Source: a virus (Duplodnaviria > Heunggongvirae > Uroviricota > Caudoviricetes). Taken from it: a stretch of DNA of 6,964 nucleotides. Shown here piece after piece: positions 1 to 5,225 of this stretch (its first letter is position 1; each line of letters starts with the position of its first letter). The stretch lies in IMG/VR virus record IMGVR_UViG_2734482785_000004; one strand, 5' to 3'. The notes beneath the pieces are model-generated. The model was not told the origin of the DNA. It worked only from the letters and a program-made list of their open reading frames with translations, and searched no databases. Both the position numbers and the translations under genes were made by a program.

Positions 1-158
1 CCCGAAATGCGTTTTACTGGCGCTTTGTGGAGCTGGGAACGATAAACATGCCCGCGCATCCGTTCATTCGCCCGGCTTTCGATACGACAGAGGAGCTGGC
101 GGCGCAGGTTGCCATACAGCGAATGAATCAGGCTATTGATGAGGTCTTAAGTAAATGA
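1..158 (+). CDS. 3' end of a phage head-tail joining / tail completion protein (lambda Z-like or HK97 gp10-like); 5' end lies outside the window
   Basis: Frame 3 is open from the window edge to TGA at 156-158, translating ...RNAFYWRFVELGTINMPAHPFIRPAFDTTEELAAQVAIQRMNQAIDEVLSK*. It sits immediately upstream of the tail gene block and its stop overlaps the next start (ATGA at 155-158). Family assignment is from memory of the conserved C-terminal motif, not a search. Confidence 0.45.
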   Translation, partial: RNAFYWRFVELGTINMPAHPFIRPAFDTTEELAAQVAIQRMNQAIDEVLSK

Positions 159-499
159 GGGAAGCCACACTGTATTCCCTGCTGTCTCAACTGGCCGGAG
201 GACAGGTTTATCCTTATGTGGTCCCGCTGACGGAGGGAAAGCCTGCGGTATCTCCGCCGTGGCTGGTGTTTTCTGTGGTGTCTGACACGGCGTCTGATGT
301 GCTTGATGGTCAGGCTGAATCCAGAATTACCGTGCAGATCGATGTCTGGGCAACAGTACCTGATGACGCAGATGATATCCGTGAGCAGGCGCTTGATGCG
401 GTAAGGCAACTGGCACCCTCCGTTATTTCTAAAACGCAGGGGTATGATCCTGACTCCCGTCTGAGCAGAGCCACGCTTGAATTTCAGGTAATAGCCTGA
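155..499 (+). CDS. Small tail protein, probably tail terminator / tail completion (lambda U-like position)
   Basis: 114-aa ORF (MREATLYSLLSQLAGGQVYPYVVPL...). Size and position directly upstream of the major tail protein gene match the lambda U slot; start overlaps the upstream stop. Function inferred from synteny and size only. Confidence 0.55.
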   Translation: MREATLYSLLSQLAGGQVYPYVVPLTEGKPAVSPPWLVFSVVSDTASDVLDGQAESRITVQIDVWATVPDDADDIREQALDAVRQLAPSVISKTQGYDPDSRLSRATLEFQVIA

Positions 500-558: not shown

Positions 559-1263
559 ATGTCCTCTAATTTTGAGCGTTCGCAACTGACGAAAATTATG
601 ATTTCGTCTGCACCGGTAACAGCAGAAACCCTGGATTCTGCCAGCTATCTTGGCCTGAGCTGTACAATCAAAGAGGTGCAGTTTACCGCAGGACAAAAGC
701 AGGATATTGATGTCACCACGCTGTGTTCTGTTGAGCAGGAAAATATTAACGGTCTTGGTGCCGCGTCAGAGATTTCCATGTCAGGCAACTTTTACCTCAA
801 TGCTGCCCAGAACGCGTTGCGCAGTGCCTATGACAATGACACCACGTATGGCTTTAAAGTTATTTTTCCGTCAGGCAACGGATTTACCTTTATGGCAGAG
901 GTGCGTCAGCATACCTGGTCTGCAGGAACTAATGGTGTTGTGGCTGCAACGTTTTCCCTGCGCCTGAAAGGTAAACCTGTGCTGACGACAGAGCCGCTGA
1001 AAGTGAAGGTCGATTTAAACAGCACGCTGCAGGTTTCTGCCGGAGCGAAACTCGAAATGGTGGTTGAGGCTGCCGGTGGTGTGCCGCCTTATTCTTATGT
1101 CTGGAAGAAAGGTAGTTCTCCTGTTTCCGGACAGACGGCGGCAACATTCAGTAAGGCATCAGCAGCATCAGGTGATGCCGGTGCGTATACCTGCGAGATT
1201 TCTGATTCAGCAAGCCCTGTTAACAAGGTGACCTCCACTTCCTGCACTGTAACCGTCAGTTAA
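559..1263 (+). CDS. Major tail (tube) protein, lambda V analogue, with C-terminal Ig-like domain
   Basis: 234-aa product from ATG 559 (MSSNFERSQL...); the track ORF begins at 508, but 559 has the good RBS and lies downstream of the hairpin. N-terminal ~145 aa resemble a tail tube domain (GFKVIFPSGNGFTFMAEV...); C-terminal ~85 aa show Ig-fold hallmarks (PPYSYVWKKG...DAGAYTCEISD...CTVTV). Position directly before the chaperone pair is canonical. Confidence 0.8.
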   Translation: MSSNFERSQLTKIMISSAPVTAETLDSASYLGLSCTIKEVQFTAGQKQDIDVTTLCSVEQENINGLGAASEISMSGNFYLNAAQNALRSAYDNDTTYGFKVIFPSGNGFTFMAEVRQHTWSAGTNGVVAATFSLRLKGKPVLTTEPLKVKVDLNSTLQVSAGAKLEMVVEAAGGVPPYSYVWKKGSSPVSGQTAATFSKASAASGDAGAYTCEISDSASPVNKVTSTSCTVTVS

Positions 1264-1277
1264 TGAGGATGGATGTG

Positions 1278-1649
1278 ATGACTAAAAATATCCGTAATCT
1301 GGCACTGGCAACGATGTCGGGGTTTCGCCATAAAACCGTTGATGTGCCTGAATGGGAGGGAGCATCGGTTGTATTACGGGAACCTTCTGCAGAAGCCTGG
1401 TTGCGCTGGCAGGAGATCGTTAAAGCAAAAGATGATGAGACACCGTTATCCGTTGCGGAGCGCGCCCGCCGAAATCTGGAGGCGGACGTTGAACTGTTCA
1501 TTGATGTTCTGTGTGATACCGGGCTGCAACCCGTATTTTCAGAGGATGATCGTGAACAGGTGATTGCCGTGTATGGCCCGGTGCATGCCCGGCTTCTTCG
1601 CCAGTCTCTGGAACTGATCAGTGATGCCGGAGAGGTTAAAAAAAAGTAG
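1278..1649 (+). CDS. Tail assembly chaperone (lambda G analogue)
   Basis: ORF ending TAG 1647-1649. Start is ambiguous (ATG 1263, ATG 1269, GTG 1275 or ATG 1278); ATG 1278 is preferred because GAGGA at 1265-1269 sits 8 nt upstream. Acidic ~125-aa protein placed between the major tail protein and tape measure genes and ending in a slippery A-run, as in G/GT systems. Confidence 0.7.
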   Translation: MTKNIRNLALATMSGFRHKTVDVPEWEGASVVLREPSAEAWLRWQEIVKAKDDETPLSVAERARRNLEADVELFIDVLCDTGLQPVFSEDDREQVIAVYGPVHARLLRQSLELISDAGEVKKK

Positions 1650-1951
1650 CGCTTCCGGGGATGCGTTTTCTGATGATGCTGGCGCTCAGGATGGGGCGCA
1701 CATTGTCAGAGTTACGCCGGGAAATGTCCGCATCAGAAATCATGATGTGGGCAGAATTTGACAGGTTCAGCCCGCTGGGGGACGAACGGGCTGATATCCG
1801 GGCTGCCCAGATTGTTTCCGCTGTTTACGGTGCGCAGGGGGTCAAAGTACCACTGAATGATGTGCTTCTTCAGTGGGAGCAGGAGCAGACAGAAGGCGCC
1901 TCAGATCCATTTGCCGGGCTGGAAAACGCGCTTTTAACCGTGTCTCAGTGA
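1278..1951 (+). CDS. Tail assembly chaperone frameshift fusion (lambda G-T analogue); join 1278..1646 with 1646..1951 via -1 frameshift
   Basis: Predicted fusion junction ...GEVKKK/VALPGMRFLMMLALRMGRTLSELRREM..., about 224 aa. The downstream ORF (track 1661..1951) has no convincing independent RBS and sits in the -1 frame directly after the slippery heptamer. The G/GT frameshift upstream of the tape measure gene is conserved across long-tailed phages. Confidence 0.75.
1638..1646 (+). other. Programmed -1 ribosomal frameshift slippery site (A_AAA_AAG inside an A8 run)
   Basis: Zero-frame codons GTT AAA AAA AAG TAG. A -1 slip on A_AAA_AAG (1640-1646) continues as GTA GCG CTT CCG GGG ATG..., the frame of the downstream 1661-1951 ORF. 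That -1 frame is closed by TGA at 1622-1624 and open only from 1625, so the slip window is a few codons wide. Confidence 0.75.
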
Positions 1952-1991: not shown

Positions 1992-4900
1992 ATGAGTGTG
2001 GCGACATTACGTGAACTGATTATTAAAATTTCGGCAAACTCCCGGTCATTCCAGTCAGAGATCTCCCGGGCTTCGCGTATGGGGCAGGATTACTACCGCA
2101 CCATGCAGAACGGAGGCCGACAGTCCGCTGCTGCATCCCGTGAAATGCGGCGTGCACTGGCAGAAGTGACGGATCAGATAAATACAGCTAAATCTTCGGC
2201 ACTGAACATGGCGGGGGCATTTGCCGGGGCTTTTGCTACCGGTCATCTTATTTCTCTCGCCGATGAGTGGAATTCAGTCAATGCCCGTCTGAAGCAGGCC
2301 TCACAGTCCAGTGATGATTTTCAGGCATCACAACGTGAATTAATGGCAATCAGCCAGAGAACGGGAACGGCTTTTTCTGATAACGCCAGCCTTTTTGCCC
2401 GCTCTGCAGCTTCCATGCGGGAGTATGGTTACAGTTCTGAGGAGGTACTGAAAGTCACCGAGGCGATCTCCACGGGCCTGAAATTATCCGGTGCCAGTAC
2501 AGCAGAAGCCAGTTCGGTGATCACGCAGTTCAGCCAGGCACTGGCGCAGGGAGTGCTGCGCGGTGAAGAATTTAACGCCGTGAATGAGAGCGGTGATCGT
2601 GTTATTCGTGCGCTGGCTGCGGGAATGGGCGTTGCCCGTAAGGATCTGAAGGCCATGGCGGATAACGGAAAACTGACCGCCGATAAGGTTGTTCCTGCAC
2701 TGATTAGTCAGCTTGGGGCGTTGCGTGATGAATATGCAGCAATGCCTGATACGGTTTCATCCTCTGCAACCAAAGTTGAAAACGCCTTTATGGCCTGGGT
2801 TGGTGGTGCGAACGAGGCAAGCGGAGTGACGAAGACGCTCTCCGGGGTGCTGAATGGTCTTGCAGGCAATATTGACACCGTGGCAACCGCTGCCGGTGCT
2901 CTGGTTGCCGTCGGGGTAGCCCGATATTTTGGCAATATGGCGTCTTCTGCTGGATCTGCAACTGCCGGATTAATTACTGCAGCCAGAAACGAAGTGGCTC
3001 TTGCGGAAGCGCAGCTCCGGGGGACGCAGATAGCAACCGCCAGGGCGCGTGCGGCGGTTTATCGTGCGCAACAGGCGGTCGCGGCTACCCGTGGTACTGA
3101 AAGACAGGCAGCCGCAGAAGCGAAACTGGCTGCTGCCCAGGCATCACTTACCCGTAATATTGCGGCCAGAACAGCAGCACAGACAACGCTGAATACTGTC
3201 ACGTCAGTGGGGAGTCGTCTGTTAAGTGGGGCACTGGGACTGGTTGGGGGTGTGCCGGGGCTTGTCATGCTGGGGGCCGCGGCCTGGTACACAATGTATC
3301 AGAATCAGGAGCAGGCCAGAGAATCTGCACGCCAGTATGCCGCAACAATCGACGAAATTCGCCAGAAAACGTCGGCAATGTCGCTTCCTGAAGCGTCAGA
3401 TAATGAGGAAAAGACGCGGCAGGCACTGAAGGAGCAGAACAGGTTAATTGACGAGCAGAAAAGTAAGATTAAATCCTTACAGGAAAAAATTGCTGGCTAT
3501 CAGTACGTGCTGGCAAACCCGGGCTGGACAACCGATAACGGTTTTATGATTAACCACATGACGTCGGTAAAAACTGTCACAGAAGGGCTTGCCGAAGCAA
3601 CAAATCAACTGGCAGTTGAACAGTCTCGCCTCACTCAAATGCAGGGCAAAGCGCAATCCATTCAGGATGTGCTTGCCGGGCTGGAGGAACGACGGGTGGC
3701 GTTGATCCGTCAACAGGCGGCGGAACAAAACAAAGCGTATCAGTCCCTGTTGATCATGAATGGGCAGCATACCGAGTTTAATCGCCTTCTCGGGCTTGGT
3801 AATGAATTACTTCAGCAGCGACAGGGGCTGATGAATGTACCGTTACGGCTACCACAGGCAACCCTGGATGATAAACAGCAGACCGCACTGAATAACAGTA
3901 AGCGCGAACTGGCTCTGTCCCGCCTGAAGGGGGAAGCGCGTGAGCGTGCCCGACTGGGCTATGCTGCGGATGATCTCGGCTTTGTGGGAGAGGCGTATCA
4001 GACAGCCAGACAGAATTATATCAATAACTCACTGGATGCCTGGCGAAATAACCAGGCAAATAAACCCAAAGCGCATAAAAAGACCGAAGCGGAAAAAACA
4101 GAAGATATTTATAAACGGCTGATTAAACAGCAGAAAGAACAGATAGCACTGGCAGGGCAGAATACTGAACTGGCTAAGATGAAATATCAGGTCAGTCAGG
4201 GCGAATTATCAACCCTGTCAGAAGCGCAGAAAAAAACGCTTTTGCAGAATGCAGCACTCATCGACCAGAAAAAGATTCGTGAGCAGCTTGCCGCGTATGA
4301 AAGCAGTCTGGCGGACAGTAATGCCAGTGCCCGGGCATCTGACGACGCGCAGTTGCTGGGATATGGTGAAGGCTTACGGATGCGTGAACGACTCCAGGAA
4401 ATGTGGAGTATCCGGCAGACGTTTGAGCAGAAAAATAACGAGCTGCTGAGACAGTATCAGGCCGGAGAAATTGAAGAAGCCCTGTGGAAACAGGAGAAAG
4501 AACTGAATAAAAAATATCTGGAAGAGCGTCTCAGCGATCAGCAGGATTATTATGCAAAGGCCGATGCTTTACGTAATAACTGGAATGCCGGACTCCAGGA
4601 GGGACTGACCAACTGGGCAGACAGTGCCACTGATTATGCTTCGCAGGCGGCAGATGCTGTCGTTTCCACGATGGACGGGCTGGTATCAAATATTTCCGAT
4701 GCACTGGCCGGGAATGTTGTGGACTGGAGGAACTGGGGGAGTTCAGTTCTCCGGGAAGTTTCAAAAATTCTGATGAATGCAGCCATTGTTAACGGACTGA
4801 AATCACTCTCCGGTGCCGGAGGGTGGCTTGGTACGGTCGGCGGATGGATTTCGGGGGCAGTGGCAAACGCAAAAGGTGGTGTTTACACATCGGCAAATCT

Positions 4901-5225
4901 GAGTGCTTACAGTAACACTATTGTGGATACACCGACGTATTTTGCTTTTGCGAAAGGTGCCGGGTTGATGGGCGAGGCCGGGCCTGAAGCAATCATGCCA
5001 CTGACACGGGCAGCGGACGGCTCTCTTGGGGTCAGGGCCATTGGAAATGTGAATGGTGGCGGTGGATTTGTTTATTCTCCCGTGTATCACATCAGCATTC
5101 AGAATCAAGGGAGCAATGGCGAGATAGATGCGCGCTCAGCCAGGGGACTGGTGGATCTGATCGACAGCAGGGTTGTGTCAATTATGCAGTCATCGCGTCG
5201 GGATGGAGGATTGTACAGTGCCTGA
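1992..5225 (+). CDS. Tail tape measure protein (lambda H analogue)
   Basis: 1077-aa ORF. N-terminal region resembles the tape-measure N-terminal domain (...GYSSEEVLKVTEAISTGLKLSGASTAEASSVITQFSQALAQGVLRGEEFNAVNESGDRVIRAL...). Two hydrophobic Gly/Ala-rich segments (LVAVGVARYF...; LSGALGLVGGVPGLVMLGAAAWY) are followed by a long Q/E/K/R/A-rich helical region. The C-terminus (...GPEAIMPL...RDGGLYSA) resembles the lambda H C-terminus as recalled. GTG 1998 is an alternative start with better spacing from GGAG 1987-1990. Confidence 0.9.
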   Translation: MSVATLRELIIKISANSRSFQSEISRASRMGQDYYRTMQNGGRQSAAASREMRRALAEVTDQINTAKSSALNMAGAFAGAFATGHLISLADEWNSVNARLKQASQSSDDFQASQRELMAISQRTGTAFSDNASLFARSAASMREYGYSSEEVLKVTEAISTGLKLSGASTAEASSVITQFSQALAQGVLRGEEFNAVNESGDRVIRALAAGMGVARKDLKAMADNGKLTADKVVPALISQLGALRDEYAAMPDTVSSSATKVENAFMAWVGGANEASGVTKTLSGVLNGLAGNIDTVATAAGALVAVGVARYFGNMASSAGSATAGLITAARNEVALAEAQLRGTQIATARARAAVYRAQQAVAATRGTERQAAAEAKLAAAQASLTRNIAARTAAQTTLNTVTSVGSRLLSGALGLVGGVPGLVMLGAAAWYTMYQNQEQARESARQYAATIDEIRQKTSAMSLPEASDNEEKTRQALKEQNRLIDEQKSKIKSLQEKIAGYQYVLANPGWTTDNGFMINHMTSVKTVTEGLAEATNQLAVEQSRLTQMQGKAQSIQDVLAGLEERRVALIRQQAAEQNKAYQSLLIMNGQHTEFNRLLGLGNELLQQRQGLMNVPLRLPQATLDDKQQTALNNSKRELALSRLKGEARERARLGYAADDLGFVGEAYQTARQNYINNSLDAWRNNQANKPKAHKKTEAEKTEDIYKRLIKQQKEQIALAGQNTELAKMKYQVSQGELSTLSEAQKKTLLQNAALIDQKKIREQLAAYESSLADSNASARASDDAQLLGYGEGLRMRERLQEMWSIRQTFEQKNNELLRQYQAGEIEEALWKQEKELNKKYLEERLSDQQDYYAKADALRNNWNAGLQEGLTNWADSATDYASQAADAVVSTMDGLVSNISDALAGNVVDWRNWGSSVLREVSKILMNAAIVNGLKSLSGAGGWLGTVGGWISGAVANAKGGVYTSANLSAYSNTIVDTPTYFAFAKGAGLMGEAGPEAIMPLTRAADGSLGVRAIGNVNGGGGFVYSPVYHISIQNQGSNGEIDARSARGLVDLIDSRVVSIMQSSRRDGGLYSA

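Follow-up and report, generated by a model that had tools for sequence, protein, structure and literature searches.

The stretch of DNA analysed here (the window; 6,964 nucleotides, one strand of the Caudoviricetes virus record IMGVR_UViG_2734482785_000004) carries a run of phage tail genes (Table 1). The gene under study follows the tail completion gene and is itself followed by the G/T chaperone genes and then by the tape measure gene, and the same gene order is seen in HK97 and in the Leclercia prophage L001; together the neighbours make up a complete HK97-type tail module. The encoded protein matches phrog_158, the major tail protein family of PHROG, with an E value of 4e-108, and is without any match in NCBIfam. 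An earlier note on this DNA had proposed that the gene encodes a major tail tube protein with an immunoglobulin (Ig)-like domain at its C-terminus. The identity of the carrier protein is borne out by the PHROG match, by the position of the gene and by the fold of the whole chain, for which the best Foldseek match in the PDB was lambda gpV (7t4f_A, E 8e-9). By homology and gene order, positions 559-1263 can be assigned with confidence to the major tail tube protein of an HK97-like temperate siphophage or E. coli prophage.

Table 1. Features of the tail tube gene and its neighbours, with positions in the window
Feature	Position	Strand	Basis or remark
Tail completion gene, gp17-like	155-499		Pfam profile matches
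Major tail (tube) protein gene, HK97 gp12 orthologue	559..1263	+	234 codons and stop; phrog_158, BLASTP, 705-nt CDS in RefSeq and phage records
Predicted tail tube domain, residues 1-140	559..978	+	Weak Pfam matches, Foldseek, invariant columns, low dN
Inter-domain linker, residues 141-147 (VLTTEPL)	979..999	+	Also the swap junction of P0014; tube-only homologues end here
Predicted immunoglobulin-superfamily (I-set/C2-like) domain, residues 146-234	994..1260	+	Pfam Ig_2, AlphaFold2, Foldseek
Most variable Ig patch, residues 146-172 (predicted strands A, A', B)	994..1074	+	10 of the 17 variable Ig positions, nine alleles
Y180-V181-W182, strand C core tryptophan motif	1096..1104	+	Conservation in 46 homologues
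D206-A-G-A-Y-T-C212, D-x-G-x-Y-x-C motif leading into strand F	1174..1194	+	Conservation in 46 homologues
C229, second cysteine, strand G	1243..1245	+	Conserved in 41 of 46 homologues
Tail assembly chaperone gene, TAC (Phage_TAC_1)	1278-1649		Pfam
T gene	1661-1951		ORF from ATG 1661 to 1951
HK97-type tape measure gene, HK97 TLTM domain	1992-5225		Pfam; M and L genes next

The longest open reading frame at the locus runs from 508 to 1263 on the + strand and would give 251 aa from ATG 508. Since ATG 559 is preceded by AGGAG (548-552), and since HK97 gp12 as well as the RefSeq and phage records of near-identical genes use a 705-nt CDS with the equivalent start, ATG 508 is probably wrong and ATG 559 the likely true start, giving a protein of 234 aa. 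The 251-aa form is used by large database clusters (P0003, with 1,760 members, and P0009). The 17 extra codons of this form overlap a weak hairpin followed by a U-run (519-545), and HK97 has an annotated putative terminator at the equivalent place; a terminator at 519-545 was considered and dropped, as the folding was no better than that of shuffled sequence (z = -0.7). When numbered from ATG 559, positions 994-1260 comprise residues 146-234, in good agreement with the segment of about 145-234 given in the earlier note, and the peptide quoted there (VPPYSYVWKK...TSCTVTV) is residues 175-233 of the frame ending at 1263. A choice of start also arises for the chaperone gene, which could begin at ATG 1263 and overlap the stop codon of the tail protein. 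The start at 1278 is favoured because the match to the Pfam TAC profile starts only at residue 6 of the longer product and because the RefSeq and phage records use ATG 1278. The 3' end of this gene, GTT AAA AAA AAG TAG, contains the heptamer A AAA AAG (1640-1646), a slippery site of the classic -1 type. From this site the -1 frame runs without a stop into the T ORF, so that a G-T fusion product is predicted, like that annotated for HK97 gp13/gp14.

The tube domain is recognized weakly by Pfam. Its matches to Phage_TTP_11, Phage_tail_2 and TTP_12 all fall below the cut-off for the window allele; the cut-off of Phage_TTP_11 is passed by HK97 gp12 and by the homologue P0031. By fold, the domain matches the lambda gpV tube (8k36_A, 7t2e_A and 8k35_L) and the YDC107 tail core (9mfe_A) in Foldseek, with TM scores on the target of 0.56-0.58 and E values of 1e-5 to 3e-5. 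The alignment of homologues contains 45 invariant columns, every one of which lies within residues 1-138. Homologues that consist of the tube domain alone diverge at the linker and end approximately 7 residues past residue 140, and in the AlphaFold2 model, which was built with 64 homologues, the tube strands extend as far as residue 144 and the Ig strands begin at 148, with 145-147 strandless. The domain boundary placed in the earlier note fits both the tube-only homologues and the model, and is right.

When residues 146-234 were searched in isolation, the Pfam profile Ig_2 scored 29.6 bits (E 8e-7), and with the whole protein as query it scored 28.4 bits, still above the cut-off of 27. Ig_3 reached 29.3 bits against a cut-off of 30 and I-set (PF07679) 21.6 bits against a cut-off of 23.7, leaving Ig_2 as the only one of these three profiles to exceed its own cut-off for the window allele. 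The I-set scores of relatives were 22.1 for HK97 gp12, 32.9 for P0021 and 26.0 for P0025, the last two of which pass. Big_2 (PF02368, cut-off 22.8) gave no match to residues 146-234 at E <= 1, and the control, lambda gpV, scored 70.1 bits with Big_2 and had no match to Ig_2, Ig_3 or I-set. The proposal that the domain is not of the Big_2 type is supported by these searches. Furthermore, the segment matches PHROG families described as ‘Hoc-like head decoration’ (phrog_2973, E 2e-21; phrog_4069, E 1.7e-15), and several solved phage Ig domains were found by sequence with E values of 4e-26 to 1e-10. The closest of these are Sf14 gp20 (9c2d, E 4e-26), which is a Hoc-like capsid decoration protein and has three Ig repeats, 9ncf, recorded as an ‘immunoglobulin-like domain protein’, the T5 decoration protein pb10 (8zvi, E 2e-15; 5lxk, E 8e-14) and the tail tube protein gp24 of the Shigella siphophage Sf11 (9occ, E 1.4e-10). 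Taken together, the Pfam, PHROG and structure-database scores lie well beyond what chance would give.

The AlphaFold2 model is all-beta over residues 146-234, with a pLDDT of about 95. Nine beta-strand segments are present in 148-233 and represent seven to eight strands, with B and G each split. The domain superposes on the second Ig domain of MALT1 (Ig-like C2; 3bfo_A) with a TM score of 0.88 and an rmsd of 1.5 A over 89 columns. In the Foldseek search of the PDB it also superposes on titin, Dscam and CD22, which are of the I-set/C2 type, and on the decoration proteins of phages N4, Moo19 and T5, the C-terminal domain of T5 pb10 (5lxk) being 40% identical in the fold alignment. The structure prediction bears out the expected beta-sandwich, with the two cysteines on strands F (C212) and G (C229). 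The narrower description of the domain as I-set-type is in line with the best structural matches, which are I-set/C2; at the profile level the I-set score of this allele is just below its cut-off, and it is Ig_2 that passes. We conclude from the profile searches and the model that residues 146-234 are a genuine immunoglobulin-superfamily (I-set/C2-like) beta-sandwich in frame with the tube domain. The single uninterrupted ORF from 559 to 1263 and the modelled sandwich agree with the in-frame, C-terminal placement originally proposed.

The motif residues by which the domain had been recognized (Y-x-W, D-x-G-x-Y-x-C and the terminal V-T-V) proved to be its most conserved positions among 46 Ig-bearing homologues. 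W182 is kept in 45 of the 46, and Y180 is a tyrosine in 36 and a phenylalanine in seven; D206 is conserved in 40, G208 in 45, Y210 in 41, C212 in 41 and V231 in 40. In the model C212 is carried by the strand at 208-215, which represents strand F. Since C229 accompanies C212 in just 36 of the 46 homologues, no obligatory disulfide between the two is indicated. Strand B (K-L-E-M-V-V-E-A) has no Cys, and the hydrophobic residues M167, V169 and A171 lie at the canonical partner site; position 167 is M, L or I in the homologues, and V169 is V in 45 of the 46. The classical B-F disulfide is therefore absent from the Ig domain of the window. Many I-set domains, for example those of titin, are also without a disulfide, and for this reason its absence is no argument against membership of the superfamily.

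The tube domain alone was then used as the query, and the following figures refer to the 120 matches listed. Approximately 55 of these carry an Ig domain of the window type (233-251 aa, mostly 233-238), approximately 31 have no domain and end about 7 residues past the tube (147-159 aa), and five, of 237 aa, have a very divergent Ig-like C-terminus that is 25-32% identical and without the Y-x-C. The three states share 70-80% identity in the tube. In the 237-aa subgroup (P0073, P0079, P0082, P0090 and P0101) R-Q-V-I-V-T-D replaces Y-x-C and Ig_3 scores only 21 bits; its C-terminus may be an allele that diverged long ago, or an Ig-like domain that was acquired separately. The Leclercia prophage L001 has the same gene order, and its 147-aa tube gene stops 8 nt short of the chaperone gene. 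We considered whether tube-only relatives might produce the domain by frameshifting or from a separate gene, and rejected this since the chaperone starts 8 nt downstream in both L001 and L002. The arrangement shows that the domain is truly absent in L001, neither frameshifted nor split off.

In other relatives the domain has been exchanged. P0014 has a tube 99.3% identical to that of the Stx-phage type P0021, whereas its Ig domain shares 57% identity with P0021 and 92% with the window type, and the identity changes partner across residues 141-150, at the linker. In P0015 the change of partner is inside the tube domain, and in P0007 the replacement is confined to the first half of the Ig domain. 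Across the 1,035 pairs of Ig-bearing homologues the mean identity is 75% for the tube and 53% for the Ig domain; in 98% of the pairs it is the Ig domain that has diverged more, and the two identities are only weakly correlated (Spearman 0.26). The comparison with the tail proteins of relatives shows the domain to be variously present, absent or exchanged, so it is not an integral part of the tube. Its absence from syntenic relatives, its exchange in others and the P0014 swap at the linker all support an accessory, exchangeable domain that moves between tube lineages by recombination, which is in line with the domain shuffling that had been suggested.

Two kinds of altered allele were also observed. 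In approximately 13 of the 120 clusters listed, the Ig half is in another frame, and several lineages break just after W-K-K. The sequence at this site is TGG AAG AAA GG (1102-1112), and the break has occurred independently in E. coli-type and Klebsiella-type lineages; in the window the alternative frame is open for 55 codons (1064-1231). The frameshifted clusters have 1-32 members, compared with 1,760, 673, 3,419 and 1,897 in intact clusters. A programmed shift was considered and set aside, as the variants amount to approximately 1-2% of cluster members, have several break sites and come largely from automated assemblies; they are likely to be sequencing errors or the result of prophage decay. 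The second kind is represented by P0118 and P0119 (NCBI E. coli, 204 aa), in which residues 75-104 are missing. This is the exact interval between the two copies of a 10-nt direct repeat, GTCAGGCAAC, at 780-789 and 870-879, which are 90 nt apart (chance expectation 0.02). The deletion takes out a helix of the tube domain, and the rest of P0119 is 100% identical to the window protein. P0118 and P0119 are probably defective alleles that arose by slippage or recombination between the repeats.

Selection was assessed by comparing the window gene with eight close alleles (Nei-Gojobori). In the tube domain dN was 0-0.003 in seven of the alleles and 0.020 in phi467, with omega of 0-0.1; in the Ig domain dN was 0.01-0.05, with omega of 0.15-0.46. 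The dS values were similar in the two halves, and the frequency of replacement changes was approximately tenfold higher in the Ig half. Among the nine alleles 7 of 145 tube residues were variable, compared with 17 of 89 Ig residues (Fisher p = 7e-4). The Ig domain is kept by purifying selection and tolerates or favours more surface change than the tube. Positive selection acting across the whole Ig domain was considered and is not supported by the pairwise omega values. An omega below 1 together with the extra replacements fits relaxed constraint and adaptive surface change equally well.

Taking these findings together, we propose the following account, which we hold to be very likely as a whole: the protein consists of a tube domain and an exposed, dispensable and exchangeable Ig decoration, which most likely binds weakly to surface carbohydrates. 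Residues 1-140 would be expected to form hexameric rings, one upon another, with the tape measure protein inside. Since the Ig domain shares the reading frame of the tube, ordinary translation should provide every subunit with one copy, which would be displayed on the exterior of the tail. The domain folds separately, joined to the tube by the short linker, and is a dispensable and exchangeable decoration, as the tube of close relatives works without one. Exposure and flexibility on the tail surface can be inferred by analogy: in the cryo-EM structure of the Sf11 tube protein, which is 238 aa long and has a homologous Ig tail, residues 7-161 alone were modelled, and the Ig domain of T5 pb10 is solvent-exposed and mobile. 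Reviews state that tail Ig-like domains are unneeded for tube formation and propose a role in adsorption or mucus binding. For the window protein the most likely job would be a weak, multivalent and reversible binding of surface carbohydrates, the candidate targets being the host cell envelope, gut mucin glycans or both, and such binding would hold the virion near a surface and so improve the odds that the tail tip meets its receptor. This adhesion role is, as rightly worded in the earlier note, a candidate function, suggested by analogy with T4 Hoc and by general arguments. Since many close relatives thrive without the domain, any benefit that it confers would be conditional.

The main rival explanation is that the Ig domain is mainly structural, providing contacts between subunits, assisting folding, solubility or the timing of assembly, or stabilizing a long flexible tail. 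The Ig domain of lambda gpV, the best whole-chain fold match, lies along the tube with a small contact to the adjacent subunit, and its removal is reported to lower activity about 100-fold. Purifying selection on the Ig domain would also be expected of a structural element. However, the domain is fully missing in syntenic relatives whose tubes are 70-80% identical, and swaps have taken place between lineages only 57% identical in the Ig domain, which is hard to square with a co-adapted interface. Variation also peaks in the Ig domain, with next to none in the tube, and the unmodelled Ig domain of Sf11 suggests a flexible tether. The naturally occurring tube-only relatives and the swaps between lineages speak against a structural role, which we regard as unlikely.

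Another explanation concerns the A-A'-B face of the domain, which might be under diversifying selection such that different alleles recognize different glycans (O-antigens or mucins), making the domain a determinant of specificity. The concentration of 10 of the 17 variable Ig positions in residues 146-172 among nine alleles with a nearly invariant tube would be in accord with this, as would P0007, with its replaced first half, and the report that single substitutions in other phage Ig adhesins alter the epithelial surface components that are bound (PMC13370021). Recombination between a few old alleles would nevertheless yield the same pattern, and omega over the whole domain is below 1, so that a specificity determinant of this kind seems rather unlikely. 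The stronger statement, that the A-A'-B variation together with the swaps of whole and half domains represents diversifying selection on a ligand-binding face, tuning E. coli prophage virions to glycans, we consider distinctly unlikely. If true, alleles would match O-antigen or capsule types or gut mucins, and the tube would be a secondary determinant of host range or niche.

That the domain has no current function here, being a neutral passenger spread among prophages by recombination and slowly decaying, could be read from its presence or absence among close relatives, its higher replacement rate and the frameshifted clusters, but is very improbable given that every comparison yields an omega clearly below 1, that the core motif residues are kept in 40-45 of 46 homologues from several genera and that the intact clusters dwarf the frameshifted ones.

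The observation in the earlier note and its reading are both correct, but the domain in the window is already known. A 2022 review (PMC9022992) lists HK97 gp12, BP-4795 ORF64 and PY54 gp12 as I-set tail tube proteins in its Table 3, credits this class to Fraser et al. 2006 and states that approximately 70% of the tube proteins of enterobacterial siphophages bear Big_1, Big_2 or I-set Ig-like domains. In a BLASTP comparison the window protein and HK97 gp12 (NP_037706) are identical at 166 of 234 positions (71%) without gaps (E 5e-128). The locus is an instance of what has been published for HK97 gp12, in an allele that is very common among E. coli prophages: the gene has 96-98% DNA identity to 11 sequenced E. 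coli phages and is found in 870 of 5,426 complete E. coli genomes (about one in six), mostly at 95% identity or more and always on the chromosome. In RefSeq it is commonly named ‘immunoglobulin domain-containing protein’, in hundreds of genomes. With the domain class, its placement on an HK97-type tube and its proposed role on record since 2006 and taken up again in present-day reviews, the finding has little value as a discovery. The family does, however, offer a handy system for testing the role of tube Ig domains, as its natural variants (tube-only, Ig-bearing, Ig-divergent and swapped) occur on tail modules that are nearly identical.

The closest of the known systems is HK97, whose gp12 has the same length of 234 aa, the same two-domain layout and the same Pfam pattern, with Ig_3, Ig_2 and I-set near their cut-offs. 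Its gene neighbourhood agrees as well, down to the G/T -1 frameshift and the HK97-type tape measure protein. HK97-type relatives, P0027 included, are approximately 80% identical to the window allele in the tube and about 59-60% in the Ig domain. One difference is that HK97 has a moron, gp15, between T and the tape measure gene, where the window has none. In L001 the moron at this place encodes a 62-aa YebO-like protein (7181-7369). In the window, T and the tape measure gene are 40 nt apart, and this interval (1952-1991) is taken up by a terminator-like hairpin, AACCGCTTCGGCGGTT, at 1960-1975, followed by a T-run.

Lambda gpV shares the architecture of the window protein, and its Ig-like domain is, according to the literature, likewise dispensable for tube formation. 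That domain is a Big_2 domain, however, and belongs to a different superfamily; the sole BLASTP match between the two proteins is weak, covering 32 residues in the tube domain. The Ig domains of T5 pb10 (5lxk, 8zvi) and Sf14 gp20 (9c2d) are homologous to that of the window; they fold independently, are exposed to solvent and can be dispensed with in the laboratory, but they are carried by a capsid-binding domain, at another copy number and position in the virion, and Sf14 gp20 has three of them in tandem. In Sf11 gp24 (T1-like, 9occ) the homologous domain is on a 238-aa tube protein, with residues 114-231 of the query aligning to residues 126-237 of the chain; the tube domain is of a different family and only the C-terminal part aligns with the window protein. 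Finally, SPP1 gp17.1* also has an accessory Ig-fold domain at the C-terminus of its tube protein which is unneeded for infectivity. This domain is an FN3 gained by a programmed +1 frameshift, whereas that of the window is of the immunoglobulin superfamily and in frame, and the same uninterrupted ORF, with no frameshift needed to reach the Ig domain, is found in HK97 and in all of the close alleles.
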